DNA of 64,000 nucleotides from positions 4,171 through 68,170 of the forward strand of contig JASHOK010000055.1 in NCBI GenBank assembly GCA_030041175.1, given 5' to 3'. Origin of the DNA: Thermoplasmata archaeon (GTDB lineage: Archaea; Thermoplasmatota; Thermoplasmata; Lutacidiplasmatales; UBA184). Shown here in pieces: positions 15,134 through 60,663 of the stretch (within the stretch, counting starts at the first letter, position 1; each line of letters starts with the position of its first letter). The notes under the pieces were generated by a model. It had not been told where the DNA came from. It worked only from the letters and a program-made list of their open reading frames with translations, and did not search any database. The translations under genes and the position numbers were made by a program.

Positions 15134-15295
15134 TCCACGCCCTCCCGCTGCGAACGGATTCCCGGGCGAGTCCCGGGACTCTTATCCCTGTTGCCCGGGG
15201 GCACGGCGGTCTCGGTCGACCCTTCGTCCGAAGGCCCGGCCATCGCACGAGGGAGTAAGTTCCGATTCACTCCGGAGTTAAGCCGCGGCCCCTGG

Positions 15296-16846
15296 ATGGA
15301 AAGCGCACGAGCTTTCCGTATGCATAGTCTCCCCCGCATCGTGGGTGCCATCACGGACCCGGATCGCCCCCTCGGGGTGGCGTTGCTGGACCGTCGGGGC
15401 CGTCTTAGGTCGGCCAACCCTGCGATGCTGGAGCTACTTGGGGGTGGCCCGGGACTCCTGAGTAGCAGTTTGCTCGAGCTCGCCGCCTTTGCGGAGGCCG
15501 GCTTGGAGGGCCCGCTGGGGCTCGCCCTCCGCGAGGGCCGGGCCTCTGCAGTCCGGGCGGCCCGGTACCAACCCCGACCGGGGAAGGAACTCCTGCTCGA
15601 CGTGGAGTTCCAACCGGTACTCGGTCCGGACGGGGAACCCGATGTCGTGGTCCTGCTCTTTGCCGACGTGACCGCAGGACCTTACCAGGCGGGCCGGGCC
15701 GCGATGTTCTTCCAGGCGTTCCAGCATAGCACCAACGCCATCGAAATCACTGATCGGGATGGCGTGTACGTCGACGTGAACCCGGCGTTCGAGCGTATCT
15801 ACGGGTACACTCGGGCCGAAGTCGTCGGGCAACGTCCTCGGCTGATCTCCAGCCCGAAGACGCCCCGGAGCGTCTTCGTCGACATGTGGGCGGCGCTGCG
15901 GGATCCCAAGCGTGGCGTGTGGTCCGGCGAGATCACGAACGTCGACCGGAACGGACGGGAACATCCTGTCTTCCTGGACGTGAGTGCCCTCCGTGACTCG
16001 TCCGGACAGCCCGTCTACTACGTCGGGGTGGCGACCGACCTGACAGAGCTCAAGACCATTCAGCTGCAGAGCATCCGGGCGGAGCGACTGGCTTCGCTGG
16101 GACAGCTTGCTGCCGGCGTAGCCCACGAACTCAACACCCCGCTGGCGAACATCATGCTCATTGCCGAGTCCCTCCAACGCCGCGGTCGATCTCCCTGGGT
16201 CGCCTCTCGGGCCGAGGCGGTCATCGGGCAGGTGGATGTGGCTTCCCACGTTGTCTCGGGCCTACTCGATTTCGGCCGATACCACCCCGCAGTGACCGAA
16301 CCGGTAGAGCTGGAGCCGCTCGTCAAGGAGGCCATCTCCTTCGTCAAGGGAAAACGATCCCCCGACGTCGAGGTCGTGGTTACGTCGACGCTCGGCGGTC
16401 TCCAGGTCCCAGTGAACCGGGTTCAGATCCTTCAGGTGCTGGTGAATATTCTGAACAACGCGTACGATGCCATGAACGACCACGGGCAGATCCGGGTCGA
16501 GAGTCGTCTCGCCGGACGTGTGGTCGAAATTGCGGTCTCGGACAACGGTCCGGGGATTCCGGACGAAGTACTCCCGCACATTTTCGAGCCGTTCTTCACG
16601 ACCAAGAGCGACGGGAAGGGTACCGGCTTGGGCCTAGCGATCTGCCACGGGATCGTCACGAGCCACGGCGGGACCCTCGGCGTAGGCACCGCGCTAGGTA
16701 AGGGAACGACCTTTACGATCCGGCTGCCACTCCCAGCCCTCCCGGCCCTGAACTCCGAGGGTAGGAAAACTCCGGCCTCACAACCGACCAGCGTTAAGTC
16801 GCCGAGGACCTCACCCAGTCATGCGCATCCTCGTCGTGGACGATGA
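15296..16846 (+). CDS. PAS-domain sensor histidine kinase
   Basis: PAS domain (NAIEITDRDGVYVDVNPAFERIYGY), HisKA H-box (AAGVAHELNTPL), and HATPase N, G1 and G2 boxes (NAYDAM, DNGPGI, GTGLGL). The upstream 349 codons of the six-frame ORF are rejected. Confidence 0.8.
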   Translation: MESARAFRMHSLPRIVGAITDPDRPLGVALLDRRGRLRSANPAMLELLGGGPGLLSSSLLELAAFAEAGLEGPLGLALREGRASAVRAARYQPRPGKELLLDVEFQPVLGPDGEPDVVVLLFADVTAGPYQAGRAAMFFQAFQHSTNAIEITDRDGVYVDVNPAFERIYGYTRAEVVGQRPRLISSPKTPRSVFVDMWAALRDPKRGVWSGEITNVDRNGREHPVFLDVSALRDSSGQPVYYVGVATDLTELKTIQLQSIRAERLASLGQLAAGVAHELNTPLANIMLIAESLQRRGRSPWVASRAEAVIGQVDVASHVVSGLLDFGRYHPAVTEPVELEPLVKEAISFVKGKRSPDVEVVVTSTLGGLQVPVNRVQILQVLVNILNNAYDAMNDHGQIRVESRLAGRVVEIAVSDNGPGIPDEVLPHIFEPFFTTKSDGKGTGLGLAICHGIVTSHGGTLGVGTALGKGTTFTIRLPLPALPALNSEGRKTPASQPTSVKSPRTSPSHAHPRRGR

Positions 16847-17912
16847 CCCCATCTTCCGCGAGGAATTGACCACCTTCCTCTCGGACCAGGGACACACCAC
16901 CTTCGAGGCGCCCTCGGTACGCCGGGCACTGGAGATCCTGGAGTCCGAGAGCGTAGATGTGCTCTTTTCGGACCTGAAGATGCCGCGGCAGAGCGGCCTG
17001 GACCTCCTCGGTGAAGTTCACCGACGGTGGCCGAGCATCTTCACCGTGATGGTCACCGGATTCGCCACAGTCCAGACCGCGGTCGAAGCGATGAAGGAGG
17101 GCGCCTTCGACTACATCGCCAAGCCGTTCCGAACGGCCCAGCTCGAGCAGGTCCTTCACCTCATCGAAGAACAGCGAGCCTTCCGCGACAGCCATCTGCC
17201 GACCGGGACCGCTGTCGAACTGGCCCGCGAGCTGGCGCGCCGAAACCATACGCGAATTCTGTACGCCGACGTGCCTCCGGCCCCGAAGGGAGAGGCCCTC
17301 GAGTTCCTGGCCTTCGACGGGCGTTCTCCCTCGGAGCTCCCCCATGCGCTAGAGACCTTTCTGCAGCAGAACCCGACGGGGGGCCTCGTCGTTGCGCAAG
17401 CCGACCGGATGGTGGCGGGTCACCGGCTCGAGGATATCGTCGCAGTCCTCGAGAACCTCCGCCAGCGCCTCGAGGGTAAGGGGCCGTTGGCGATCAGCAT
17501 CGATCCGACCCGGCTATCCAAAGGCCAGGCCGAGGCGCTCCGGACCGCGGTCACCGCCCCCGCGGTGCAGACGGCGCTGGAAGCGCTGTCGAGTCCGATT
17601 CGGCGACGGGTGCTCTTCCGGCTGACCAAGGGACCGGCCAGCTTCAGCGAGGCGATGCACGCGGCCGAGCTGGACGACTCCCCGAAGCTGGCCTTTCATC
17701 TACACCGGCTCGTCGACGAGGGGCTGATCGCCCACCTGGGAGAGCAGTACCGTCTCACACCCAAGGGCCAGAGCGCCGTGACCGTACTCCGAGAGATGGA
17801 GGACATTGCCGCCGGCAAGGGCTCGAAGACGGTCGTCTATCAGACCCCGCCGACGGCCGCGCCGGTAAGTGGGACCCCTGCTGCGGCCGCAGTTCGAAAG
17901 AAGCGGCGGTGA
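16821..17912 (+). CDS. response regulator: CheY-like receiver plus middle domain of unknown function plus C-terminal ArsR-like winged helix
   Basis: Receiver motifs MRILVVDDD...DVLFSDLKMP. C-terminal wHTH (IRRRVLFRLTKGPASFSE...HLHRLVDEGLI). Overlaps the HK by 26 nt. Confidence 0.75.
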   Translation: MRILVVDDDPIFREELTTFLSDQGHTTFEAPSVRRALEILESESVDVLFSDLKMPRQSGLDLLGEVHRRWPSIFTVMVTGFATVQTAVEAMKEGAFDYIAKPFRTAQLEQVLHLIEEQRAFRDSHLPTGTAVELARELARRNHTRILYADVPPAPKGEALEFLAFDGRSPSELPHALETFLQQNPTGGLVVAQADRMVAGHRLEDIVAVLENLRQRLEGKGPLAISIDPTRLSKGQAEALRTAVTAPAVQTALEALSSPIRRRVLFRLTKGPASFSEAMHAAELDDSPKLAFHLHRLVDEGLIAHLGEQYRLTPKGQSAVTVLREMEDIAAGKGSKTVVYQTPPTAAPVSGTPAAAAVRKKRR

Positions 17913-48609: not shown

Positions 48610-48763
48610 GATCGTCCGGAGCTGCCCCTACTGCCGGTCGAGCCGGCTGATCTTCGAGGGCGCGCTGATCCTGGGCCAGCTCTACCGGTGCCTCGACTGC
48701 GGCTACGTGGGACCGCTCGTGCTGGAAGAGGAGGTCCCGGACTCCGGGACTCCGCCGAGCTGA
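48584..48763 (+). CDS. small zinc-ribbon protein (59 aa), not in the provided ORF track because it falls below the size cutoff
   Basis: ATG at 48584 to TGA at 48761-48763. Sequence [59 protein letters not shown] carries two CxxC knuckles. It overlaps the gyrA 3' end (out of frame) and the folP 3' end (convergent). Confidence 0.35.
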
Positions 48764-50091
48764 CGGGCGGGGAAGCGACCACCGCGAACGGCGTCCGCCA
48801 CGGCCAGTGCCCGAACGGTCGGCGCCACGTCGTGGGCCCGAACGACGGCGGCATTCGCCAACGCCGCGACCACCGCGGCGGCGAGGCTCCCTTCGAGCCG
48901 CTGGTCCGGCGCCGTCTCGCCGGTCGCCTTTCCGATGAGGTGCTTCCGCGACGCACCCACGACCACGGGGCGGCCCAGGCTCCGGAACTCCCCCAGGTGA
49001 CGCAACAGGTCGAGTCCCTGCTCCGGCGACTTTCCGAAGCCGATGCCGGGGTCGACCAGCAGCTGTTCGGGCGAGACCCCATCGGCTTCGGCGGTGGCGA
49101 GGGCATGCGCGAGGCCGCCGTACACCTCGGACCGGAGGTCGGCGTATTCCGTGTTGGACTGCATCGTCGCCGGCGTTCCCCGCATGTGGACGAGGATCGC
49201 CGGCGCCTCGGTCCGCGCCAGCAGCCGACGCATCTCTGCGTCTCGAAGCCCCGACACGTCGTTCACGAGGTCGGCGCCCAGGTCGAGAGCCTCCCGGGCG
49301 ACCTCGGGCTTCTGGGTGTCCACCGAGATCGGGATCGTCAACCGGTCGTGGAGCGCGGGGAGCACGGCCCGCAGGCGGACGAGCTCCTGCTCCGCCGAGA
49401 TCGGCGTGGCCCCGGGCCGACTCGATTCGGCGCCAATATCCAGGATCCGGGCCCCCTCGGTCTCGATCTCGACCCCTCGGGCGATGGCGACCTCCGGCTG
49501 GTCGAAGAGGCCTCCATCACTGAAGGAGTCGGGGGTGACGTTCAGCACGCCCATCACCGCGGTGGAGTCTCCAAGTCGGACCGACCGGTGGAGGCCCTCG
49601 ATCAGCACCGGCGAGTGGCGCGAATAGTTCTCGAGCACCGCCTCCACCGCCGAGGCGACCGACCGGAGCTGGAACGGCTGACGGCGCAGCTTCGGGACCA
49701 GGCGCGAGTACTGCGACGGCGTACCGATCAGCACCACGGTGCTCTGGGGCACGGACAGGTCGGCGACGCCCTTCGCATGGGCGGAGTCGGCTCCCAGGGC
49801 GAGCATCTCCTGCTTGAGCAGCGGAGCGGCCTTCAGGGGGATGCCGTCCAGACGTACGAGAAGGGTCCGGCCCTTGCGGGTCATGATCCCGACGCCTTCG
49901 GGGTCCGAGTCGGTTCGCTCGACCTCCCGGGCGATCTCGAGGGGGGTCGAGACCTCCAGTACCCGGGCGCCGTACCGGGCGATCAGGTCGATCGGTGCGG
50001 GGGCGCTCGCACGCGGCACAGTACCGGGAGACGCGGGTCCTTCCCAAAAGGGTGGTCCCGGCCAGGTCGGGGTCGGGATTTTCCGCGGCAA
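48703..50091 (-). CDS. folP: dihydropteroate synthase with an about 180-aa N-terminal domain of unknown function
   Basis: Pterin-binding DHPS motifs (MGVLNVTPDSFSDGG, ILDIGAESSRPG, ISVDT, LVNDVSG, DPGIGFGK). The N-terminal 180 aa have no recognised motif, and the start may be internal. Confidence 0.8.
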   Translation of the reverse strand: MPRKIPTPTWPGPPFWEGPASPGTVPRASAPAPIDLIARYGARVLEVSTPLEIAREVERTDSDPEGVGIMTRKGRTLLVRLDGIPLKAAPLLKQEMLALGADSAHAKGVADLSVPQSTVVLIGTPSQYSRLVPKLRRQPFQLRSVASAVEAVLENYSRHSPVLIEGLHRSVRLGDSTAVMGVLNVTPDSFSDGGLFDQPEVAIARGVEIETEGARILDIGAESSRPGATPISAEQELVRLRAVLPALHDRLTIPISVDTQKPEVAREALDLGADLVNDVSGLRDAEMRRLLARTEAPAILVHMRGTPATMQSNTEYADLRSEVYGGLAHALATAEADGVSPEQLLVDPGIGFGKSPEQGLDLLRHLGEFRSLGRPVVVGASRKHLIGKATGETAPDQRLEGSLAAAVVAALANAAVVRAHDVAPTVRALAVADAVRGGRFPARQLGGVPESGTSSSSTSGPT

Positions 50092-50132
50092 CCAAGGTTA
50101 AACCCCCGAGGAACCGTCCCGCCCTTTCCTCG

Positions 50133-50351
50133 ATGAAGCCGCTCGACCTCCTGCAGCAAAGCCTCCGGAAGCCGGTCCTCGTGGAGCTCCGCGGGGGCCG
50201 CCGGATCCGGGGGACGCTGGAGTCCTACGACCAGCATCTGAATCTCGTGCTGTCGGCCGCCGAGGAACAGGACCCGTCGGCGACGGCGCCGACCCCACGG
50301 CCTGGGCTGACCCTGGTCCGGGGCGATAGCGTCATCTTCATCTCCCCGTAG
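50133..50351 (+). CDS. Sm-like archaeal protein (SmAP/LSm)
   Basis: 72 aa. Sm1 and Sm2 motifs (PVLVELRGGRRIRGTLESYDQHLNLVL). Located immediately upstream of rpl37e. Confidence 0.85.
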   Translation: MKPLDLLQQSLRKPVLVELRGGRRIRGTLESYDQHLNLVLSAAEEQDPSATAPTPRPGLTLVRGDSVIFISP

Positions 50352-50377
50352 GTTCCGCCCCACGACCCGGAGCACGT

Positions 50378-50539
50378 ATGGGAAAGGGAACTCCGTCCAG
50401 CGCCGGCGGCAAGATCGTCCACTTCCGTTGCCGCCGCTGTGGGAGGCACTCGTTCCACCGGCAAAAGCGCGTGTGTTCCTCCTGCGGCTTCGGAAAGACG
50501 ACAACGCTGCGCCAGTACGACTGGGCCAAGCGCCACTGA
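50378..50539 (+). CDS. rpl37e: 50S ribosomal protein L37e
   Basis: 53-aa ORF below the track cutoff: MGKGTPSSAGGKIVHFRCRRCGRHSFHRQKRVCSSCGFGKTTTLRQYDWAKRH, with the C4 zinc ribbon typical of eL37. Confidence 0.85.
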   Translation: MGKGTPSSAGGKIVHFRCRRCGRHSFHRQKRVCSSCGFGKTTTLRQYDWAKRH

Positions 50540-50548
50540 CCGGCCGCC

Positions 50549-51112
50549 TCACGACCGGCCCCTTCGGGACCGGCCCCGAGAGACCCATCGATTCCCGCTC
50601 AGGAGAAATCGCAGTCGCCGGGTACGCCCACGGGTGACACCGATCCTGGGGGTCCGGACCACCGTTTCGTCGGGCCGGGGGCCCGGTGCGATCCGCAGCC
50701 GAGGTCCGGTGACCGCACTGACGCCGTCGTCGGCCCGGGTCAGGTCGAAGGCGCGGCAGAGGCGACCCGGGCCCTGGGTGTTTCCGAGAGCCGGGGTCAG
50801 CGGTTCTGCGGCCCGGAGCAGCACCGCTTGCCCGGGGCGCGTCGTCAGGTTGACGCAATGGACCTGGTGTATCCGGTAGACGTAGACGGTCCCGGGTCCG
50901 GCGAACATCGCCCGGTTTCGTTCGGTCCTTCCCCGATACGCGTGGCTCGCCGGATCCTTGGCGACGTAGGCCTCCGTTTCCACGATCCGGGCCACCCGCC
51001 ACCCTTGACGCACCCGCAGGATCAGCCGGGCTCCGAGCAAGTCCCGGGCGACCGCGATCGTGGACCGGTCGTACCACGAGGCCGGATACGGGTGCCGGAA
51101 CGCTCGGCGCCA
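50549..51112 (-). CDS. mpg: DNA-3-methyladenine glycosylase (AAG/Mpg family); no canonical start codon at the expected N-terminus
   Basis: VETEAYVAKDPASHAYRGRTERNRAMFAGPGTVYVYRIHQVHCVNL matches the Mpg core. The homologous region begins around WYDRSTIAVARDLLG, but no ATG, GTG or TTG lies within 15 codons upstream. The coordinates are therefore approximate. Confidence 0.6.
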   Translation of the reverse strand, partial: WRRAFRHPYPASWYDRSTIAVARDLLGARLILRVRQGWRVARIVETEAYVAKDPASHAYRGRTERNRAMFAGPGTVYVYRIHQVHCVNLTTRPGQAVLLRAAEPLTPALGNTQGPGRLCRAFDLTRADDGVSAVTGPRLRIAPGPRPDETVVRTPRIGVTRGRTRRLRFLLSGNRWVSRGRSRRGRS

Positions 51113-51138
51113 GATCCCCGCCGAGTCCCGGCCCTCGG

Positions 51139-52248
51139 TCAGAGCAGCTTTCCCCGGTCGAGCAGGGGCTTTCCGTCGAGCGCGACCGTCGCTTCGCCGA
51201 CGACGAGCCAGGCGAGGAACGGATTGGCATTCTTTCCCCCGTACTCGGTGTTGCCCCCGATGGACACGGCCACCGCACCGGCTTCGGCATCCTCGAGACG
51301 CGGGACCCCGGGATCGAGCGCGGAATTCAGCCCCAGGGAGACGAACCCGCCCCGATTCCAACCCGGCGAGACGTCCTGGGTCGCCTGCTCGAAGGCGGTG
51401 CCTCCATCGGTGAACGAACAGCTGACCATCTGGCCGCGGTCGAACTCCCACTGGCCACCCTCGATCCGGCCCATCCGGGGGAAGCTCGGCCGGTTCGCCA
51501 CCACGAGACCCGCCGCACTCTTCTCGTCGATCGCCACGGCGACGTATCCCGGCGGCGCCGCCGTCATGTTGAAGCCGGCCCGGAGGTCGGTCCCGTCCAC
51601 GACCCCGTCGTCGACCACCGGCCTCCGTCCCCGGAGGGAGAGCTTGAGGTCGGTTCCGTTCGCGGCCGTCAGATGGAGCTCCTTGCCCTTCTGTAAGCGG
51701 GCGCCGAGCCGAGCCGCGTCCCGCTTGATCCCGGGGAGGTCCGCCTGGACGGAGGCCCGGACCAGCTGTTCGCGCCAGACGCTCGGGTCGACGCGATACT
51801 CCGCGGCCACCTCATTCGAGGCGTATCCGAGCAGGGACCGGAGGCCCCGGAGATGGGCGGCCTTGGCCCGTCGGTACCATTCCCGGTTGTAGGCGACGGA
51901 CTGTCGGGCGTCTCGACCCTGAGCCCGCCACCGGGCCCGGTCCGCAGGCCCCGGGAAGAACACGTACGCCTGGGTCTTCGCGAGCGCCGCCCACTCGTGG
52001 GCGCCGACGGTGCCGAGCTCCCGCTTGGAGGCTACCTCCCAGCTCTTCCAGTAGGCGCCCTCGTCCTCGTAGAGAAGGATCGGCCGGGCTCCGCGCCGAC
52101 GGGCCTCGGCGACGCAGGCCGTGGCGTAGGGAAGGGTGTGGGTCCAGCTCTCAATGATGACGTTCTCCCCGCGCTTCACGCCGAGCGCCGGGCCGAGGAA
52201 GACGCGCGCGAGCGCCTCGGCACCGGAACCGTCGGTGGCCATGCCCAC
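51139..52248 (-). CDS. aminopeptidase, M29 (AmpS/PepS thermophilic metalloprotease) family-like
   Basis: 369 aa with an overall pattern resembling M29 aminopeptidases (GENVIIESW...PLLY N-terminal region, an acidic Glu/His/Asp-rich C-terminal half). Assigned from motif resemblance only. Confidence 0.5.
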   Translation of the reverse strand: MGMATDGSGAEALARVFLGPALGVKRGENVIIESWTHTLPYATACVAEARRRGARPILLYEDEGAYWKSWEVASKRELGTVGAHEWAALAKTQAYVFFPGPADRARWRAQGRDARQSVAYNREWYRRAKAAHLRGLRSLLGYASNEVAAEYRVDPSVWREQLVRASVQADLPGIKRDAARLGARLQKGKELHLTAANGTDLKLSLRGRRPVVDDGVVDGTDLRAGFNMTAAPPGYVAVAIDEKSAAGLVVANRPSFPRMGRIEGGQWEFDRGQMVSCSFTDGGTAFEQATQDVSPGWNRGGFVSLGLNSALDPGVPRLEDAEAGAVAVSIGGNTEYGGKNANPFLAWLVVGEATVALDGKPLLDRGKLL

Positions 52249-52267
52249 CGGGATGCGATGGCTCGGT

Positions 52268-53569
52268 TTAAAGGCGTGAGGAACGGGCGCCGCCGACTGC
52301 CCTCACCCGGCGCACGAACGCCGATGCCGTCCCCTTCCACTCGCTCCAGGCCGTGACCCAGCCTTCGATGACCGCTCCCGCATCGTCGAGACCTGGCGGC
52401 ACCTCGACGGCGGCGTTGCGGTCGGGGAACTGCTGCCGCCAGTCCTCCCGGTCCCGGGCCTTCCGGACGATCGCTTCGACTCGCCGGAGCCGGGAGAAGT
52501 CGGAAAGGTCGGCGCAGAGCGAGCGGGAGACTCCGTGCCGGTGCCATGCGCGCAGCAAGGCGTCGATCTTCTCCGGCCGGTGGCGCCGCGTTCGCCGGCC
52601 CTGCTCCAGTACGCCGTTGAAGTAGAGGAACGGCCCTCCGAGGGCGAGGGCCTCCAGCAGCGTCCGGCTCCCGGTCACGATTCGGAGCTCGGCGCCGTCG
52701 AAGGCTCGGGCCCAGTCCCGAGGACCGGTTGGGGGCTGCCGCACCCATCGGACGCCCGGTGCCTCCGGCAGTTCGAACGGCTTGGGGCCCCGGACCTCGA
52801 TCTGGAGGGGAGACCCGGCCGGAAACGGTGCGGGCCCGACCTGGGCGACACGTACCGCGAGTCGATCGGACGACGACGGGCTGGCGTACCAGACCCAGTG
52901 CCCTGGTCTCTGCGACCCTCGGGTCCGGGCCCGATCCGGCCACAGGGGGCCGGTCTGGATCGCCTCCGGAAACTCCCGCTGGAAGGCCGCAGACCGCTGA
53001 AACCCGGTGTACAGATGGAGGACGTTCACTCGGTCGAAGGCCCTCCACGTACGGTAGGCATCGTGGAAGGCCCGGATTTCTGCCGCCGCGGAACGACGAC
53101 GGACTCTGCGAGCAATCTCGGCGGCCGCGATGCCACCTTCCCGCCAGCGCTCCTGGGTCTGCCGGCGGCTCGTCCAGGTCCGTGCAAACTCTTCGAGACT
53201 CAGATGAACGACCTGATCTCGGCCGTACAGCTGCTCGAGCCGGGCCGTCTCCTCGCTCCAGGCCCCGGGCCGGCCGGAACGCTCCTGCCCCGGAGCGGCG
53301 GAGACCCCCCACCACGGCGTTACGGTGAGGGCGCGAGGGGCCCGAACCTCCGGTACCGTTACCCGTCGGACGGCCGGCCAATCCCAGGGACCGTCGACCG
53401 ATGCGGGAACCGGATGTCCCTCCAGCCGATAGAGGTTCAGCGACCAGCCGGCCCCCGAGAGGCGTCGGCCCACTGCCAGCACCTCTTCGATATCACCGAG
53501 TCCGCCTCCGACGACGGCGGGCTGGAGATAGATATCGATGCCGGAGCGCCGGCCCGGCGGGACGGTCAT
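52268..53569 (-). CDS. hypothetical protein, possible GT-B-fold glycosyltransferase-like
   Basis: 433 aa; start taken at MTVPPG (ATGA overlap with the upstream GNAT stop). The C-terminal RIVTGSRTLLEALALGGPFLYF resembles the C-terminal Rossmann half of GT-B enzymes. Weak assignment. Confidence 0.4.
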   Translation of the reverse strand: MTVPPGRRSGIDIYLQPAVVGGGLGDIEEVLAVGRRLSGAGWSLNLYRLEGHPVPASVDGPWDWPAVRRVTVPEVRAPRALTVTPWWGVSAAPGQERSGRPGAWSEETARLEQLYGRDQVVHLSLEEFARTWTSRRQTQERWREGGIAAAEIARRVRRRSAAAEIRAFHDAYRTWRAFDRVNVLHLYTGFQRSAAFQREFPEAIQTGPLWPDRARTRGSQRPGHWVWYASPSSSDRLAVRVAQVGPAPFPAGSPLQIEVRGPKPFELPEAPGVRWVRQPPTGPRDWARAFDGAELRIVTGSRTLLEALALGGPFLYFNGVLEQGRRTRRHRPEKIDALLRAWHRHGVSRSLCADLSDFSRLRRVEAIVRKARDREDWRQQFPDRNAAVEVPPGLDDAGAVIEGWVTAWSEWKGTASAFVRRVRAVGGARSSRL

Positions 53570-54513
53570 GCCGTCAGCCGATGGAGCATCGTGATGTCGT
53601 GGAACTGCTCGGAGAATCCGAGTTCCGTCAGGACCGGCAAGCGGTCGTCTTGATGGTCCGGCAGCCAGGTGATCGCCCGGGCAGCGTTCCGCTGCTCCAC
53701 CCATCGGAGGGCCGTCAGGATCGCGTCGCGAACCGCCGGCATCGGTGCCGAATCGGCAAAGAGTGGAGAGCTGAGATTCGCCGCCGCCATCAGTCGGCTG
53801 ACCGTGGCGCGGAGATAGCCCGCGGGCTGGCCGTCCACTTCCAGCACCCAGGCCTGGCTGTCGGATTCCAACACGTGCGCGGCCCCGGTCCCGACCCGAA
53901 ATTCTCGAGCGGTGCGCGGCAGGACGGCCCGGACCGCAGGGGACATTCGCCGGTTGTCGATCTCGGCAAGCCGGCGTCCGTCGGCAGGCCTAAAGGGCCG
54001 GAGATGGGCCGCGCCCGAAGGGGTCGGGAGGGGGCGACCGGCTCCGAACTCCCGTATCATCCACCGGACCTCCCGGAGCCGCCCGAACCCGGCATGTTCG
54101 TAGAGTGCGATCGCCGGCGCGTTCTGGGCGAGGACATCCAGGACCACGTTGGGACGGCGATACCGACGGCCGAAGCGCTCGCCGATCTCGAGCATCGCCC
54201 GCGCCCGACCCTGGCGGCGGAACGCCTCGTCCACGACGACGCCGGAGACATACATGCCTCCCGGTACGAAGTTCAACACCGTGGTTGCGACGATCCGGCC
54301 CTCGACCTCGTCGACTAGGATCACCACGACGGGGCGTCCCACCCAGCGGGCCAGGCGCAGAACGAGACGGATCCCGGCGCCTTCCATTCGCTGGACGACT
54401 CTGCCCACGGCCTCCGGGCGGAGCCCCACGACCGGGAACTCGTCCGTGGGATTCCGGCGCCAAAGGTCGGCGACGCCAACCCAGTCCCCTCTCCGGTACT
54501 CGCGAACGGTCAC
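53566..54513 (-). CDS. GNAT-family N-acetyltransferase (tandem GNAT-like halves)
   Basis: Acetyl-CoA-binding motif A pattern (VDEAFRRQGRARAML) and a second half ending LGF. Confidence 0.65.
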   Translation of the reverse strand: MTVREYRRGDWVGVADLWRRNPTDEFPVVGLRPEAVGRVVQRMEGAGIRLVLRLARWVGRPVVVILVDEVEGRIVATTVLNFVPGGMYVSGVVVDEAFRRQGRARAMLEIGERFGRRYRRPNVVLDVLAQNAPAIALYEHAGFGRLREVRWMIREFGAGRPLPTPSGAAHLRPFRPADGRRLAEIDNRRMSPAVRAVLPRTAREFRVGTGAAHVLESDSQAWVLEVDGQPAGYLRATVSRLMAAANLSSPLFADSAPMPAVRDAILTALRWVEQRNAARAITWLPDHQDDRLPVLTELGFSEQFHDITMLHRLTA

Positions 54514-55997
54514 GACCGCTTCCGCGACCGCGGCGATCGAGGGACCACGAACAGCTCCGCCAGCGTCGGCGGGTCGGTCCCCCGACGGACCTCCGGCGCC
54601 GGGAGCCGAGCGGGTCGGTGCAGCTCCGAGGCGGGCAGCCGGCGCCGGGCCCGGGCCAGCGAACGTTCGATCGTCGGGTCGGGGCGGGCCTGGTAGAGCC
54701 GCCCGAGTGCCTGGACGACCGCGTCGAAGATCCGGTCATGGGCGTCGCTCTGCAGCGAGATCGCGCCGTCTCCCTCGGCGAACGTGATCCGCTCGCCGAC
54801 CTGAGAATCCGGTTTCTCCAGCAGCTGGAGGAGGCCGTCTCGGCTCTCGGCGTCCCCCAGGTGGCCCAGCGCCCACACCGCCGCCAGTCGAACCTCCGGT
54901 TCGGGATCTCCGAGATGCGCCCGGATCCGAGCCAGAGCATCTACCGCGCCGAGGCGACCGAGCGCGTAGACCGCGCCCCGACGCGGCCACATCTGCCGGT
55001 CATCCAGCAGGGGGAGCAGTACGGTAGAGTCCGCGGGCACGCCGACGCCGCCCAGGCACTCGGCCGCCGCCCCCCGGACCGACCAGACCGGGTCGGCAAG
55101 ATGTTCCCGAGCCGGAGCCGCGGCGTCCGGGGACCGCAGGTCGCCCAGGGCGTGGAACGCGCAGACCCGGGCCCAACTGGTCCGGTGCGACACGAAGCCG
55201 AGGAGCGCGGGAGCTGCCGCGGGATCCCCGATCCGGCCCAGCGCCACGAGCAGCGACGGGAGGACTCGGGCGTCGGTCTCCTTGGGTAGGCGGTCGAGCA
55301 GCCACGGCACCGCCTCTCGGACCCGGCGCTCCCCCAGCCCGACGGCGGCCGCGATCCGTACGCGCACCGCGGGATCCGTGAGGAACGGACGGAGCAACGC
55401 CCCGAGGTCCGGCGGGTCCAGATGCGCCAGCGCCAGCAGCGCTTCGCGTCGCACACGATCGTTGGGGTCTCCCCGAGCCAGTCGGAGGGCCTCGACGCAG
55501 CCCGGACACCCGAGCCGGCCCAGCGCCACGGCCGCACTCCAGCGGACGACCGGGTCCTCGTCGTCCATGCACGCGATGAGCGCCGCTTCCGAGCGGTCAT
55601 CGGCGATCGCCCACAGGGCCCACGCCGCCTGTTCCCGGACCCGGGCGCTGGGATCTCGCAAGGCCCCTTCCAGCTGGACCCGGCTCCGGGCGTCTCCGAG
55701 GGCACCTAGCGCAGCGGCGGCGGAGCGTCGCACCTCCGCCTCGGAGTCCCGGAGCGCACGTTCCAGCGCCGGCCGGCTCCGATGGACCTTCAGGTGGCCC
55801 AGGCCCCATGCGGCGGCCTGCCGGAGCACCGACTCGTCATCGTCGAGCCGTTCGACCAGGCGATGCGGGTCGTCATCGCCGCCTCGTGCGATCCAGTCCC
55901 GAATCTCCCGGAGTCGTTCCGCGACCGGACGGTCGGCGCCGGAGCCCGGGGACGGGCGTCGGACCCGGGACGGCCGGGACGAACGGGCGGGGGGCAC
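54510..55997 (-). CDS. HEAT-repeat (PBS-lyase-type) protein
   Basis: More than 10 tandem repeats of about 31 aa of the form xVRxxAAxALGxLGDxxAxxxLxxxLxD. Confidence 0.75.
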   Translation of the reverse strand: MPPARSSRPSRVRRPSPGSGADRPVAERLREIRDWIARGGDDDPHRLVERLDDDESVLRQAAAWGLGHLKVHRSRPALERALRDSEAEVRRSAAAALGALGDARSRVQLEGALRDPSARVREQAAWALWAIADDRSEAALIACMDDEDPVVRWSAAVALGRLGCPGCVEALRLARGDPNDRVRREALLALAHLDPPDLGALLRPFLTDPAVRVRIAAAVGLGERRVREAVPWLLDRLPKETDARVLPSLLVALGRIGDPAAAPALLGFVSHRTSWARVCAFHALGDLRSPDAAAPAREHLADPVWSVRGAAAECLGGVGVPADSTVLLPLLDDRQMWPRRGAVYALGRLGAVDALARIRAHLGDPEPEVRLAAVWALGHLGDAESRDGLLQLLEKPDSQVGERITFAEGDGAISLQSDAHDRIFDAVVQALGRLYQARPDPTIERSLARARRRLPASELHRPARLPAPEVRRGTDPPTLAELFVVPRSPRSRKRS

Positions 55998-56076
55998 GCC
56001 GATGGCTACCGCTGGGAACCTAAGGCCGTTTTGTGCCGGCGCCGCTCGACCGCTTCGCCGCCGGCTCCGGGCCTCC

Positions 56077-58389
56077 TCACGCCAGCCCTTCCGGCCACTC
56101 TTCGAGGCGGTGCTGGTCGAGGGCCTCCGGGGAACGGTACCGGCTGGGCACCCGGTCCGCCCGCACGCCCCAGCGGGCGAGGAGCGTCGCGCGACGCACG
56201 CCCATGGGTGCGAGGAGCGTCTCCGCCGACCGGGCCAGCAGCTCCAGGTACGCGTCGGGGTCGTACGTCTCCTGACCCGTCAGCGCCTCGGCCACGACCA
56301 CGCGGTCCCGCCAGGAGCGAGCCGTCCGGTCCGCGACCAGATAGCGGACCGTTTCCCCGGGAGCGCGTACGATACCGTGATGGGCCAGCTGGCGGAGCGC
56401 TGCCACCGAATCGCTGAACGTCACGTAGGCGCCGAGTTCCTGGACGATCCGACGGGAGATCAGCAGCTCCTCGCGCGGCCAGTGACCGTCCCGGATGCGC
56501 TCGGCGAAAGCGTCGGCCCGGGCCAGCGCCCGCGGGACGGAGGCCCGGAACTCGTCCGCGTTCCGGGCGCGGCCGAACAGCTGCAGCACCTCCGCTTCGA
56601 ACCGGCGCAGCAGGATGGGGGTGTCGTGGCGGCGGGAGCCGATCCCGCGGAGCTTGAACTCTCCCGTAGAGTAGAGGCCATAGTACCGGTTCGGCACGCC
56701 GAGGCCGTGCGTCACCGCCGGCAGAAACACGATCCAGCGGTACCGACCCTCGTAGCCGAGCGGCAGGTCGAACTCGCGGCTCATCGTCTCGGCGAAGCGC
56801 TCCGGATCCGGCGGATGCGCGGGGTCGGTCGGCCGGACCCACAGCGAGTCGACGATCCCGTGGATCACCTGGTATCCGTACTCCTCGGCCCGATGCAGGA
56901 GACCAGCCAGGAGCTCGCGGGCGTAGGCGTTGATCGATTCGTGACACTCGATCCGGCCGAATCGGGCGTTCCGGTACCCCTGGTAGCCGAAGGCGGTGAC
57001 GAGGATCCACTTGAGCATCTTCACCCGGCGCTGCAGGACCTCCCGCTCCGTCGGGGAGAGGCCCCGCTGCCGGAGTTGCGCCTTGTACGCGAGGCGGCGG
57101 ACGAGGAGCGGTTCGAGCGTCCGGGGAATGAGGCCGACCCGTCGGTCACACGACCGGTACCCCAGACCGGGCGCCCGTCGCCGGGCCGACGGACAGCACC
57201 GGCAGTCGAGCGTCTCGGCCGAGAGGTTCTGCCGGACCATGATGTGCGGATAGAGGCTCGCGAAATCGAACTCGTCGACGTGGTCGTGGACGCCGACCGG
57301 GGGCAGGAAGATCACGCCGCCGCGGTCCCCGTCGAGCAGTTTCCGGCCGGACTTCCACGCCTCGGGCCGGTTCTTCTTCCACGGAATGTGCACGCCATCC
57401 TCCCGGGCATGCGCCATCTCCATCGCCGTGAAGCAGGTGCCCGGGGACTGCCGGGCCACGGTCTGGAGTGATAGCCGGGAGAGGCGGGCCGCCTCGACGA
57501 GCCCGGGCACGGAGGCATCGCCCCAGAGGAACGAGTTCCCCCGGTCGACGTGGAACCGACCCGGCAGCAGGAACGCCGCCTCCCGATGCCGGATCTGCCC
57601 GTACGTCTGGTACGAGAACGCCTCCCGGTACGGCCGGAACCGGCCCGGCTCCCGGCCCAGGAAGAAGGTCGCTTCGGTGAAGCCGGCGGCCTGGGCACGT
57701 CGGTAGAGCCACGGAATGTCGCCTCCGTCCCCGCCGTCGGTCAGCAGGAGGTCCGGATCCTGCCGGACGACCTCGTCCCGGACCTCGGCGAGGAGCGCCT
57801 CCTCCGGACCCTCGAGCGTCACCTCCCCGACCCGGACCGCCGCGATCGGTTCGGTACCGCGGATGAATCCCTCCCGCTGACATCCCTGCAGCTCGACCTC
57901 GAGCGCCGCGCCGGACAACGGCGGCAGGTCGTAGTGGATCGTCTCCGCCGGCTCGAGCGCGACAACGGCGTCGGCGCTCCACCGGATCGGCGCGAACGGG
58001 TAGAGCTGGTGCTCGAGGTGGTAGAGATGCGGCGGCGTGAGGTCGACGTCGTAGAGGTGGAACCGCGTGTATCCGCCCCGAGCATCGATCGTCGTGGCGA
58101 GGCGTCGGCGGTCCGGGTTCCGCCGCGGAACCACTCCGAGCACCCGCCGGGGCCTCCGGTCGTAGAGCGATGGCCGAAGGACCTCGAAGCCCGTCGACGC
58201 GACCCGCGGGTCGTTCGCCAGCTCCCGGGCCAGAGAGTCCAGGTCGGCGCGAGGGCCGTCGACCCAGAACGGCGGGAGGAACGGTTCCACGCGTCGGGAG
58301 ACCGCGCCCCGGACGCCGTCCTTCAGCCAGAGGACGACCGAGACGCCGTCGCGTCCGTCGGTGATGTCGAGTAGCCAGCCTTCCGCCAT
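56077..58389 (-). CDS. polB: B-family DNA polymerase homolog with divergent catalytic motifs (possibly attenuated or inactivated PolB paralog)
   Basis: Motif A DFASLYPHIMV. Motif B-like KILVTAFGYQGY. Motif C reads HGIVDS instead of YGDTDS. Exo I-like region YDVD instead of FDIE. 770 aa. Confidence 0.75.
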   Translation of the reverse strand: MAEGWLLDITDGRDGVSVVLWLKDGVRGAVSRRVEPFLPPFWVDGPRADLDSLARELANDPRVASTGFEVLRPSLYDRRPRRVLGVVPRRNPDRRRLATTIDARGGYTRFHLYDVDLTPPHLYHLEHQLYPFAPIRWSADAVVALEPAETIHYDLPPLSGAALEVELQGCQREGFIRGTEPIAAVRVGEVTLEGPEEALLAEVRDEVVRQDPDLLLTDGGDGGDIPWLYRRAQAAGFTEATFFLGREPGRFRPYREAFSYQTYGQIRHREAAFLLPGRFHVDRGNSFLWGDASVPGLVEAARLSRLSLQTVARQSPGTCFTAMEMAHAREDGVHIPWKKNRPEAWKSGRKLLDGDRGGVIFLPPVGVHDHVDEFDFASLYPHIMVRQNLSAETLDCRCCPSARRRAPGLGYRSCDRRVGLIPRTLEPLLVRRLAYKAQLRQRGLSPTEREVLQRRVKMLKWILVTAFGYQGYRNARFGRIECHESINAYARELLAGLLHRAEEYGYQVIHGIVDSLWVRPTDPAHPPDPERFAETMSREFDLPLGYEGRYRWIVFLPAVTHGLGVPNRYYGLYSTGEFKLRGIGSRRHDTPILLRRFEAEVLQLFGRARNADEFRASVPRALARADAFAERIRDGHWPREELLISRRIVQELGAYVTFSDSVAALRQLAHHGIVRAPGETVRYLVADRTARSWRDRVVVAEALTGQETYDPDAYLELLARSAETLLAPMGVRRATLLARWGVRADRVPSRYRSPEALDQHRLEEWPEGLA

Positions 58390-58685
58390 CGTCGTGCCCT
58401 CCGGGTGGGTCTACCGCTCGGTGCCGCCGACGCACGGTCAGAGGTTCCCGGGGTCGCCGTTGTCTCCGTCCGTGTGCGCAGGTCGAGGAGAATCGACAGG
58501 AAGATCGTCTCCGTGAGGTCCGGCGTGCCGCCGTACGTGGACTGCGGGATGTACCGGCGCACCGAGGTACGGAGGTCCTCGAGTGCCGCACGCTCCTGCG
58601 GCGTGGGCAGGAGCGCCGCGAACCGGTCCCACCGCTTCAGCCGTTCCTCGAGTGCCTGCCGGTAGGTGGGAGCGGTGCGGCCCAT
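58323..58685 (-). CDS. hypothetical small protein
   Basis: 120-aa ORF between the RadA-like gene and polB; its 3' end overlaps the polB start by 67 nt. No domain recognised. Confidence 0.35.
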   Translation of the reverse strand: MGRTAPTYRQALEERLKRWDRFAALLPTPQERAALEDLRTSVRRYIPQSTYGGTPDLTETIFLSILLDLRTRTETTATPGTSDRASAAPSGRPTRRARRWRKAGYSTSPTDATASRSSSG

Positions 58686-59515
58686 GGGTTCACCTCCTCG
58701 GTCGCGTCGGCGGGAGCGAACTCTTCCAGGCCCCGCTGACCGGGCGGCCGATACACCATCAGCAGCCGTCGACCCTCGCGGACCGACCCGAGCTCGACAC
58801 CGACTGGTCGGGGGATCAGACGGATTAGGTCGGAGAACCGGGGACCGGCCTCCGAGAGCCCCGGGAAGGCCACGAGTCCGCCCGCCACCGTCAGCAGCAG
58901 CGGAAGGCCGGTGCCCTCGACGAGGTCGGCGAGCCGTTCCGACACGTACCGCAGCAATGGCTCGCGTTCCTCGGGGGGAAGTTCTTCCGGATTGTCGAAC
59001 AGCGTCGGCAGTTCGTGCCCGATGAGTAGCGTCGGGCGGTGACGGCGGGCCTCGGCCGACCAGCCATCCACCAGGGCGACCAGTTGGTAGGCCGTGAATG
59101 CCCGGGCGAGGTGGATCCCGTCGAGGACCGGGTCGGGTTCGAGTCCCAGCGCCTGCCCCTGTTCGACGATGCGGTAGGGATTGAATCGGTTCGCACCCTC
59201 GACCAGCGAGATTCGGCCGTGGGCAAGCGCGTTCCCGGCGTACAGCAACTCCAGTAGCCGGTCGATGGCGTACGGGGCGCCGGTCCAGACTGTGGCCTCA
59301 CCGGGAGCAAACCGTCGTCCGAGCCAGCCGAACAACGCCGGCGCTTCGGGGAGCACCCGCCGGGCCGGGAGCCGGCGGCGGAACCGCACCGGCACCTGCG
59401 GTCGGGGCCCGGCCGGTCCGGCCGGGGCCGGCGTCGACCCCGGAGCCGGCACTAGGTCCGGGACCGCCCACTCCGAATGGCCCACGGCGAGCGTGGCCGC
59501 CACTCCTCGAGACAC
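58637..59515 (-). CDS. RecA/RadA-superfamily protein with a degenerate (deleted) Walker A P-loop
   Basis: GRISLVEGANRFNPYRIVEQGQALGLEPDPVLDGIHLARAFTAYQLVALVDG aligns with the RadA core block vYIDTEgtFrPeRi...gld...vLdNI.yARAy.s.hQ. Where GxxGSGKT is expected, the sequence reads TVWTGAPYA. Codon GC3 bias supports coding. Confidence 0.55.
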   Translation of the reverse strand: MSRGVAATLAVGHSEWAVPDLVPAPGSTPAPAGPAGPRPQVPVRFRRRLPARRVLPEAPALFGWLGRRFAPGEATVWTGAPYAIDRLLELLYAGNALAHGRISLVEGANRFNPYRIVEQGQALGLEPDPVLDGIHLARAFTAYQLVALVDGWSAEARRHRPTLLIGHELPTLFDNPEELPPEEREPLLRYVSERLADLVEGTGLPLLLTVAGGLVAFPGLSEAGPRFSDLIRLIPRPVGVELGSVREGRRLLMVYRPPGQRGLEEFAPADATEEVNPWAAPLPPTGRHSRNG

Positions 59516-59577
59516 GGATGAAACCTCGAGCGGAACGAGCGGTTTGGTCGCCTCTTAAGTCGCCCTTCGGGGGACTT

Positions 59578-59603
59578 GAAACGCCCCGTCACACCGGCGT
59601 TTC
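59578..59603 (-). terminator. 8-bp perfect inverted repeat GAAACGCC (10-nt loop) GGCGTTTC, 20 nt downstream of the ornithine cyclodeaminase-like gene stop and upstream of the RadA-like gene
   Basis: Read from the sequence. There is no T-run, so it could be either a weak terminator or a protein-binding site. Confidence 0.35.
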
Positions 59604-59623: not shown

Positions 59624-60562
59624 CTAGCTCCGACGGAGCAATTCGGCCGCGAGCAGTACCTCGGTACCAGCCAGACCCTCGGAGAGGAACAGGGTGCGTT
59701 CGGCCGGCGCGGTGCGTCCCGGTGTCCGCCCGGCAACAATGTCGGCGAGGTCGACGATCCGGTTCCACGCCGACGTGTTTTGGAGGAGGTTCGGCTCGTC
59801 GTACCCGGTGAGCTGCCGCGGAGAGTCCGTGGCGATGCGGTCGGCCTGCTCCGCTACCGCGGTGTCGATCTCGTGTGATGTCACGGTCTTGCTGCCCATC
59901 GTCGTCACGTGCGTGCCGGCCCGTACCCAGCTGGCGTCAAGGACCGGCTGGCCGCTCACGGTGGAGCAGATGACCACCGGCGACGACTCCACCACCTCGC
60001 GTGCCGTCGCGCACGCCTCTGCTTCCAGGCCGTACGCGTCCCGGGCCGCGCGTGCGAACTTCTCTCGGTGGGCCGGGGTCGGGCTGAACACGCGGAGCCG
60101 CTTCAGCGGCAGCACAGCTCGGGCCGCTTCGAGCTGGGCGCTCGCCTGCAGGCCGGAGCCGAGGAAACCGATCCGGTCGGCGTCGGGAAGGGCGAGGTAC
60201 TTGAGGGCCACACCACCGATCGCAGACGTCCGGAGAACACCGAGTCGAGTCCCGAGCACGGTACCTTGCAGGGTGCCCGTCCGGGAATCGAAGACCATCG
60301 TAGCCTGTGTCCGGTCGGGGTGCACACCTCCGTCCTCGCTCGCGCCGGGAAACGTGTTGTACACTCGGAAACCGACGACGGACGACTGGGCGGTGTCGCC
60401 TCCGACGGTGAAGACGAGGGCTCCGGTGGGGAATCGCACGTAGTGCCGTGGGGGTGCTTGCAGCCGGCCGTCGCTCTTCGCCTGGAAGGCCTCCTCCATG
60501 ACCCGGATCGCGTCGGGCATCGGCAAGAGACGGTCGACGTCCGCGTCGACCAATGTCTTCAT
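59624..60562 (-). CDS. ornithine cyclodeaminase / mu-crystallin family NAD(P)-dependent enzyme
   Basis: Rossmann motif IGFLGSGLQA and OCD-family pattern. Start taken at MKTLVD. Confidence 0.7.
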   Translation of the reverse strand: MKTLVDADVDRLLPMPDAIRVMEEAFQAKSDGRLQAPPRHYVRFPTGALVFTVGGDTAQSSVVGFRVYNTFPGASEDGGVHPDRTQATMVFDSRTGTLQGTVLGTRLGVLRTSAIGGVALKYLALPDADRIGFLGSGLQASAQLEAARAVLPLKRLRVFSPTPAHREKFARAARDAYGLEAEACATAREVVESSPVVICSTVSGQPVLDASWVRAGTHVTTMGSKTVTSHEIDTAVAEQADRIATDSPRQLTGYDEPNLLQNTSAWNRIVDLADIVAGRTPGRTAPAERTLFLSEGLAGTEVLLAAELLRRS

Positions 60563-60663
60563 CGCCTCCACGAACCGGGACAGCCGTGGCGGTCCTTCAC
60601 GGTTCCGGAGCCGGCTTGGAGCCGGTCGCATAGCCTATCCGATGTAGCCTTCTCCCGGCTTCA

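Follow-up and report, generated by a model that had tools for sequence, protein, structure and literature searches.

The PolB2 family-B DNA polymerase, an inactivated RadA homolog (iRadA) and a small helical protein (arCOG07300, renamed PPB2) are encoded in a conserved operon that occurs in several gene orders, one of which, iRadA-PPB2-PolB2, is designated type 1a; most PolB2 proteins lack the first Asp of the DxD motif (Makarova et al. 2014, PMC4104785; Timinskas et al. 2025, PMC11791011). Published neighborhood surveys found Orc1/Cdc6, LexA, SRAP and DUF72 genes to be enriched near PolB2. This mutasome is the main damage-tolerance polymerase studied in Sulfolobales, the only order in which induction of the system by DNA damage and its translesion activity have been established (PMC6061795). 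Here we analyze a 64,000-nt stretch of archaeal DNA (the window; contig JASHOK010000055.1, G+C ~68%) in which these three genes are followed by five more on the same strand, a locus that bears on the regulation and partners of PolB2 outside Sulfolobales. The nearest homologs of its PolB all come from metagenome-assembled genomes of Thermoplasmata, one of them labeled Candidatus Lutacidiplasmatales, which identifies the host as a member of Thermoplasmata. We propose, with a probability of about 0.6, that the array consists of three tandem, tightly packed transcription units found in a Lutacidiplasmatales-like clade of soil Thermoplasmata: iRadA-PPB2-PolB2, by homology with Sulfolobales Dpo2 a presumed translesion polymerase complex with its own dyad-bearing promoter; HEAT-GNAT-GT-B; and M29-like-Mpg, the latter two each with a promoter-like box of its own. 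The comparisons below show the gene identities, the conserved order and spacing, the promoter-like boxes, the dyad and the places of breakage; from them we infer where transcription starts, that a regulator binds, whether the units are coupled physically or functionally, and the biochemical roles of the second and third units.

As a preliminary description of this stretch had it, eight genes run co-directionally on the minus strand from 59515 down to 50549; their order is iRadA-PPB2-PolB2-HEAT-GNAT-GT-B-M29-like-Mpg. Seven of the open reading frames (ORFs) are backed in their frames by codon-position GC, which is high at third and low at second positions, and the eighth is a conserved 120-aa ORF (58323-58685) that bridges iRadA and PolB2, overlapping them by 49 and 67 nt, respectively. 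Gaps across the string range from -67 to +79 nt. GNAT and GT-B overlap in an ATGA at 53566/53569, just as had been described; the overlap of HEAT and GNAT at 54510/54513, also listed there as ATGA, reads GTGA, and the gap of about 80 bp that had been placed before polB is a 79-nt gap after the PolB2 stop, ahead of HEAT. Between GT-B and the M29-like gene lie 19 nt if the latter starts at GTG 52248, or 25 nt if it starts at ATG 52242. The identities first assigned to the products (PolB, RadA-like, HEAT, GNAT, GT-B-like, M29 and Mpg) all held up, on evidence of varying strength. The polymerase and the RadA homolog, which had been taken for an unexplained degenerate pair, turn out to be already explained: judged by motifs and gene order, they belong to the published PolB2 mutasome (translesion) operon (PMC4104785, PMC11791011).

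Several lines of evidence support this assignment. The polymerase (770 aa, 56077..58389, minus strand) matches PF00136 at 66 bits and has no other Pfam match, in particular none to the exonuclease domain PF03104, and the best NCBIfam models fall below their cutoffs (NF004418, 414 bits). Motif A is kept as DFASLYPH; motif C reads HGIVDS, an IxD in which Ile replaces the first Asp of DxD. The protein thus combines the two marks of the PolB2 type, replacement of the first Asp of motif C and a decayed proofreading domain. By hand count, 39 of 61 residues in the segment from motif B to motif C are identical to a Thermoplasmata PolB2 given in the supplement to the published PolB2 survey. iRadA (58637..59515, minus strand) matches the RadA/Rad51 core (Pfam Rad51, E 6e-5), and its family profile matches RadA/Rad51 structures with E 1.4e-10 in an alignment that begins only after the Walker A region. 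In our reading of the family consensus the Walker A GSGKT cannot be aligned and GPxxAxE stands in its place, while the Walker B position has LLVGHE where RadA has LLIVDS; it is a RadA homolog that lacks the ATPase active-site residues.

The ORF between these two genes is a putative PPB2, a family of small three-helix proteins of ~90 aa, which it resembles in position, size and predicted helices. Wherever a related locus covers this region, an equally placed ORF of 50-85% identity is present, with conservation concentrated in about the first 75 aa, and a single-sequence AlphaFold2 model predicts three helices (8-23, 29-45 and 57-76), albeit at low confidence (pLDDT 56). The 84-aa ORFs at this position in two relatives, L081 and L083, carry PF26485 in precomputed annotation; our local Pfam copy gave no match to PPB2, even for these relatives. 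A fold search with the PPB2 model was dropped because the model is too poor. In many relatives the ORF is 84 aa long and ends before PolB2; the extra tail in the window is of low complexity and predicted to be disordered.

The locus therefore shares with the published mutasome the type 1a order and orientation, the IxD of motif C, the lack of a detectable exonuclease domain, a RadA homolog without ATPase motifs, a small protein predicted to have three helices encoded between them and, in relatives, a DUF72 neighbor. It differs in that five more co-directional genes follow, starting within 79 nt, that the PPB2 ORF is 120 aa long and overlaps both of its neighbors, and that no Orc1/Cdc6 gene was seen in the annotated parts of the window or of the related loci. 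An analogy can also be drawn, from models in the literature, with E. coli Pol V (UmuC-UmuD'2-RecA), which has been compared with PolB2 (PMC11791011): both would pair a specialized polymerase with a RecA/RadA partner and a small accessory protein under damage-responsive control, although PolB2 belongs to family B rather than Y and its RadA homolog is inactive. Thus the core operon is already known. What may be new, to our knowledge, is modest: its clade-wide extension, the promoter dyad, promoters embedded in preceding stop codons, and the pairings of the M29-like gene with Mpg and of GNAT with GT-B. A search for these names in a local collection of papers returned nothing beyond the PolB2 papers.

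We used one genome per GTDB species to assemble 80 related loci with PolB2 proteins 61-95% identical to that of the window. The expectation of the preliminary description that gene order would be conserved among relatives was borne out: HEAT, GNAT, GT-B, M29-like and Mpg follow in the same order and orientation in 47-49 of the 51 loci whose sequence continues for 6 kb or more past PolB2 on the downstream side, even though the proteins encoded by these downstream genes are only 32-60% identical. Spacing is conserved as well, with median gaps of 27 nt for PolB2-HEAT, -7 for HEAT-GNAT, -8 for GNAT-GT-B, 19 for GT-B-M29 and -8 for M29-Mpg, and the same context was recovered from metagenome loci sampled via GT-B rather than PolB2. 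Order and spacing that recur in dozens of species-level relatives are far more than chance.

Not all junctions are equally stable. Those within the proposed units are nearly always intact: iRadA-PPB2 in 75/75 loci (100%), PPB2-PolB2 in 74/76 (97%), HEAT-GNAT in 52/55 (95%), GNAT-GT-B in 98% and M29-Mpg in 46/46 (100%). Between units, the PolB2-HEAT junction is intact in 77%, being broken in 15 of 64 loci by insertions or by loss or relocation of HEAT, and the GT-B-M29 junction in 90%, with breaks in 5 of 50. The convergent junction between Mpg and the neighboring SmAP gene, used as a control, is intact in 89%, about the same as the junctions between units. Side by side with this synteny, two irregular loci were noted. 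In L075 (6062-10009) the PolB2 ORF spans 1315 aa, suggesting an intein, a duplication or a fusion, and on the long-read contig L082 PolB2 was not called at all, probably owing to indel errors, since L083, with identical neighbors, has PolB2 intact; near the L082 locus, a gene for the catalytic subunit of an A-type ATP synthase (14293-17184) carries an intein with a LAGLIDADG domain.

The second line of evidence for three units comes from candidate promoters. As the organism is an archaeon, bacterial sigma-70 and intrinsic-terminator models were set aside and AT-rich hexamers and A/T runs were listed directly. All-A/T hexamers are rare, occupying 27 positions in the 64 kb, several of them at 29-40 nt ahead of a start codon. 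Between 48 and 61.5 kb there is a single one, a TTTAAA at the junction of GT-B and the M29-like gene (52267..52272, minus strand). This candidate promoter of M29-like-Mpg overlaps the stop codon of GT-B and stands 30 nt before ATG 52242. Relatives have a conserved (T/C)TTAA(T/G) here. The GT-B stop codon, inside this box, is TAA in 45 of 54 loci, whereas TAA accounts for 0-13% of stops in the other genes, a bias suggesting that the TTAA box itself is under selection. Upstream of HEAT the window has an AT-rich, TATA-like stretch, ACAAAACGGCCTTAGG (56019..56034, minus strand), 22-37 nt ahead of GTG 55997, and relatives have TTTTAG, ATATTAG or TTAAAG at the same distance. The iRadA-PPB2-PolB2 unit is preceded by the TATA-like box CTTAAGA (59553..59559, minus strand), in which CTT(T/A)AG is nearly invariant in the alignment.

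To compare genes across relatives, boxes were scored as A/T-rich hexamers starting between -42 and -22 from the start codon, with random coding sites as control. Such a box precedes SmAP, a reference gene that must have its own promoter, in 91% of loci, the M29-like gene in 85%, HEAT in 73%, iRadA in 70% and DUF72 in 45%; by contrast with these, the frequencies for PPB2 (0%), PolB2 (3%), GNAT (4%), GT-B (2%) and Mpg (0%) are close to the random control (1.5%). Conserved TATA-like boxes thus stand before HEAT and the M29-like gene besides iRadA, and the comparison suggests internal promoters at the two junctions within the string that break most often. The string that had been described as undivided would on this evidence fall into three parts. 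The co-transcription that had been proposed for it is supported in part: order and spacing are conserved as the proposal would have it, but internal promoter-like boxes are present and breakpoints lie only between the three modules.

Some observations speak against three units. Promoters were called solely from the conservation of AT-rich boxes and the distances at which they lie, and the box before HEAT in the window is weak (CCTTAGG / ACAAAA), weaker than in most relatives. The 70% for iRadA derives from only 20 loci, because the poorly conserved iRadA N-terminus left no more of them assessable. In many relatives the box includes the stop codon of the gene before it, so that stop context could explain some of this conservation. 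Within 48-61.5 kb no run of A or T reaches a length of 5 and hence no oligo-T terminators separate the units, so that read-through from the iRadA promoter could give one long transcript. Finally, flanks that are not part of any operon with the string, such as SmAP, the ATP synthase genes and GyrA, are syntenic too, making adjacency weak evidence on function.

The lack of an obvious archaeal terminator, the common orientation of all eight genes with gaps of -67 to +79 nt, the median PolB2-HEAT gap of 27 nt and the order kept in most relatives would all suit a single eight-gene operon transcribed from the iRadA promoter, in which the downstream proteins would be co-expressed with the PolB2 mutasome upon DNA damage and the internal promoters would be basal only. 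We regard this as unlikely. Order and tight spacing are conserved as expected of one operon, but the genes do not stay together on rearrangement: the PolB2-HEAT junction is the one most often broken, and the five-gene block occurs without PolB2 in one deeper relative, described below. Nor do the downstream genes appear among those enriched near PolB2 in the published surveys; HEAT, acetyltransferase, glycosylase, aminopeptidase and M29 are absent as terms from the portions of the PolB2 survey's supplementary files covered here. The conserved boxes before HEAT and M29 likewise tell against a single promoter, as does a dyad element specific to the iRadA/PolB2 promoter.

This element, GAAAC-N16-GTTTC (59578..59603), lies 18 nt upstream of the iRadA TATA-like box and may serve the PolB2 operon as an operator or activator site. 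It is the sole exact match in the 64-kb window. In 50 related loci GAAAC-N15-18-GTTTC occurs at the same position, 17-18 nt upstream of the iRadA TATA-like box, and in an alignment of 32 sequences GAAAC and GTTTC are invariant while the other columns average 58% identity. It was never found upstream of HEAT, M29-like or Mpg, either in the window or in relatives. In one locus (L032) an insertion separates PolB2 from iRadA-PPB2, and there a second exact copy of the dyad stands directly upstream of PolB2. These observations suggest that the dyad is probably the binding site of a regulator of the PolB2 operon.

In Sulfolobales, the Orc1/Cdc6 paralog Orc1-2 binds the element 5'-ANTTTC-3' in damage-response promoters, that of dpo2 among them, and in S. 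islandicus dpo2 depends on Orc1-2 (Sun et al. 2018, PMC6061795). The dyad is similar in that its GTTTC core, too, is short and conserved and lies ahead of the start codon in a PolB2 (dpo2) operon promoter. It differs in consisting of two inverted GAAAC/GTTTC half-sites 15-18 nt apart that are located upstream of the TATA box, and the base preceding the invariant GTTTC is C or T, not A. We therefore treat the likeness of the two motifs as a resemblance only. Being sharply defined and clade-wide, the dyad could serve as a handle for finding the PolB2 regulator and its regulon in Thermoplasmata.

To reach deeper relatives, we seeded a metagenome scan with a divergent GT-B subfamily and obtained two informative loci, L084 and L085. 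In L084 the GT-B relative stands alone in an unrelated context (CysRS, SecY). In L085 (7324-13893) HEAT-GNAT-GT-B-M29-Mpg-DUF72 are co-directional and tightly packed, with 30% identity for GT-B and 55% for Mpg and again an A/T-rich box before M29; iRadA, PPB2 and PolB2 were not found within 7.5 kb upstream or ~8 kb downstream. A divergent HFX_2341-like gene with a winged-helix domain lies upstream of the L085 block. In L078 and L074, in turn, PolB2 is present and the downstream block is missing. Together, the block without PolB2 and PolB2 without the block indicate that the five downstream genes are an older, separable block, and the adjacency of the second and third units to PolB2 is a lineage-specific and separable trait.

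Two further explanations concern the functional relation of the units to one another. One is that HEAT-GNAT-GT-B-M29-like-Mpg together with DUF72 form an integrated repair or damage-tolerance module that cooperates with PolB2. In one version Mpg and DUF72 would make or process abasic or incised sites that are then bypassed by PolB2, and the acetyl- and glycosyl-transferases, with HEAT as their scaffold, would modify a factor of repair or replication. DUF72, a published PolB2-associated gene that was sought in the window and not found there, precedes iRadA in most relatives, yet in L085, which lacks PolB2 there, it comes immediately after Mpg and has the same orientation, so that it accompanies the block at two different places. 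In L047, L056, L057, L064 and L066 an inversion moved the block from DUF72 through SmAP whole relative to the ATP synthase and FolP-GyrA flanks, displaced HEAT genes stay beside DUF72 (L059, L062 and L065), and M29-like and Mpg are never separated (46/46). The stable PolB2-DUF72-Mpg neighborhood thus hints at coordination of base excision with lesion bypass. Even so, we consider an integrated module quite unlikely. HEAT, GNAT and GT-B have no domain that points to DNA or repair proteins in Pfam, NCBIfam, PADLOC or Foldseek searches; the unrelated SmAP-L37e pair travels with the block as well, so that its integrity is not specific to function; the promoters of the second and third units lack the dyad; and the supporting observations are of adjacency in a single clade of order rank and in one outgroup locus. 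The suggested theme of DNA damage fits PolB2 and Mpg, with DUF72 in relatives, whereas only adjacency ties HEAT, GNAT and GT-B to it.

A bolder version of the same idea, to which we would give little credence, is that HEAT-GNAT-GT-B, M29-like-Mpg and DUF72 make up an undescribed archaeal damage-processing cluster that works with the PolB2 mutasome or substitutes for it; the acetyl-/glycosyl-transferase pair, scaffolded by HEAT, would modify a protein of repair or replication, the inactivated M29 would be a partner subunit of Mpg, and the dyad would be the operator of a euryarchaeal-type damage regulon.

The opposite explanation is plain inherited synteny, in which three functionally unrelated housekeeping or accessory units happen to lie in a slowly rearranging part of the chromosome. 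The whole neighborhood of ~20 kb (ATP synthase genes, ferredoxin, DUF72, the string, SmAP-L37e, FolP and GyrA) is collinear in most relatives, and the junctions between units break at about the rate of the convergent Mpg-SmAP junction, both points in its favor. It leaves aside, though, that DUF72, PolB2 and Mpg share a DNA-damage theme and that DUF72 keeps company with the block in two positions, and it does not readily account for tight packing and promoters embedded in preceding stop codons that are kept at 30-50% protein identity; we find it somewhat doubtful. Our estimates for the four readings are not additive, as the integrated module and inherited synteny concern function and overlap with the two architectural readings. 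Three tandem units remain the arrangement that we favor, and if the neighbors of PolB2 should be unrelated to repair, the locus would still show cleanly how an archaeal promoter can be embedded in the stop codon of the gene before it.

The second of these units begins with an unambiguous HEAT-repeat protein of 495 aa (54510..55997, minus strand, start GTG 55997) that scores 242 bits with HEAT_2 in 7 stretches. That it is a deoxyhypusine-hydroxylase-like enzyme was ruled out by reading the translation, in which the repeats lack His-Glu motifs. The GTGA overlap leads to an equally unambiguous GNAT acetyltransferase of 315 aa (53566..54513, minus strand; Acetyltransf_1, 56 bits), whose translation contains RRQGRA, a motif of the coenzyme A-binding type, and the ATGA overlap in turn to a GT-B-fold, glycosyltransferase-like protein of 433 aa (52268..53569, minus strand). 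For the latter we found no Pfam, NCBIfam or PDB-chain sequence match, the search against PDB being made with the family profile, and the fold assignment comes from its AlphaFold2 model (pLDDT 87, pTM 0.87). An N-terminal G-D-I motif is, we presume, reminiscent of EarP. When the model was compared with the PDB by Foldseek, the top seven hits were EarP (best E 1.7e-7, TM 0.44-0.53), followed by other GT-B enzymes. The modeled protein thus shares the two-Rossmann-domain GT-B fold with EarP, the EF-P arginine rhamnosyltransferase (PDB 6J7L, 5WXK), but it has no sequence-level match to EarP, these searches do not place it in that sequence family, and its TM values of 0.44-0.53 are low.

The GT-B family found in the GNAT pairing is very small and clade-restricted: a set of 1.84 billion representatives contains just 88 clusters of it at 50% identity. 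HEAT, GNAT and GT-B are presumably translationally coupled through their 4-nt start/stop overlaps, and could form a modification module in which an acetyltransferase and an enzyme of glycosyltransferase fold act on a repeat scaffold. The public protein set contains two apparent GNAT-GT-B fusion proteins, P0393 (757 aa) and P0402 (505 aa). These could be genuine, or could stem from a 1-nt error at the ATGA overlap, which would create such fusions, and we did not use them as evidence.

The third unit joins the M29-like gene (51139..52248, minus strand) to Mpg (50549..~51142, minus strand). The M29-like protein resembles M29 aminopeptidases (PepS, AmpS and AmpT; PF02073) through a weak match above threshold (38.5 bits against a cutoff of 27). 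In M29 enzymes the PTEEV segment and histidines are metal ligands. The family profile of the M29-like protein also finds PepS (4ICQ, E 6.6e-4), aligning to PepS residues 212-306, about a quarter of the protein, and in this alignment PPGxV stands opposite PTEEV. Among 18 homologs no His after residue 35 is invariant or nearly so, and none is invariant in the C-terminal half. Because of the PPGxV opposite PTEEV and the missing conserved C-terminal His, the metallopeptidase site has probably been lost and the protein is probably not a metallopeptidase; the missing Glu/His/Asp ligands are a strong indication, drawn from an alignment that covers about a quarter of the protein. It differs from M29 aminopeptidases also in its context, as in relatives the gene is always found in an operon arrangement with Mpg.

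Mpg itself is a 3-methyladenine DNA glycosylase of the Mpg/AAG type, with full-length matches above curated cutoffs (PF02245, 156 bits; TIGR00567, 123.9 bits against 116.35). Its start codon had been called non-canonical, which is plausible: there is no ATG, GTG or TTG between TTG 51361 and the conserved N-terminus, where the only candidates are CTG 51142, in a CTGA overlap with the M29 stop, and ATC 51115, leaving TTG 51361 as a distant alternative. In lacking a canonical start codon the window copy is unlike a typical Mpg/AAG gene, as it is in overlapping or abutting an M29-like gene, an arrangement seen in 46 of 46 assessable relatives. In relatives the start codon of Mpg varies by locus and is often inside the 3' end of the M29-like gene. 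A programmed frameshift or read-through that would join the two proteins was considered and rejected, because the Mpg frame relative to M29-like varies (+1 in most relatives, -1 in the window and four others, 0 in three) and each relative has a canonical start in or near the M29 3' end. The unit would couple an M29-derived protein whose metal site is apparently lost to a base-excision glycosylase. Two uncharacterized pairings of biochemical interest emerge from the second and third units, an M29-derived pseudo-enzyme that is always with Mpg and a GT-B protein that is always with GNAT and usually with HEAT.

The surroundings of the string were also examined. At its downstream end lies a convergent pair on the plus strand (50133..50539) that is outside the string, consisting of SmAP (50133-50351; NF001963, 74 bits) and ribosomal protein L37e (50378-50539, 53 aa; PF01907, 61 bits). 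The L37e gene, too short for the ORF list, fits between SmAP and the Mpg stop, with the L37e and Mpg stops 9 nt apart on opposite strands. At the upstream end a co-directional ornithine-cyclodeaminase-family gene (59624-60631) is the neighbor of iRadA, an adjacency that is not conserved in relatives. The wider window encodes housekeeping and transport functions: FolP, GyrA, a DHH protein, an aminoacyl-tRNA synthetase, DUF998 and an ABC transporter. Rfam found no RNA family in the region. An anti-phage defense system was considered and dismissed, PADLOC giving only generic HEAT matches and an intein-type polymerase match. The FolP ORF (48703-50091, minus strand, 462 aa) has an N-terminal extension, and its start overlaps the upstream part of the SmAP ORF (49995-50351, plus strand), so that FolP probably begins at a more downstream start. 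Relatives have ~0.8-1 kb between FolP and SmAP, a space occupied by a kinase-like gene that is missing in the window.

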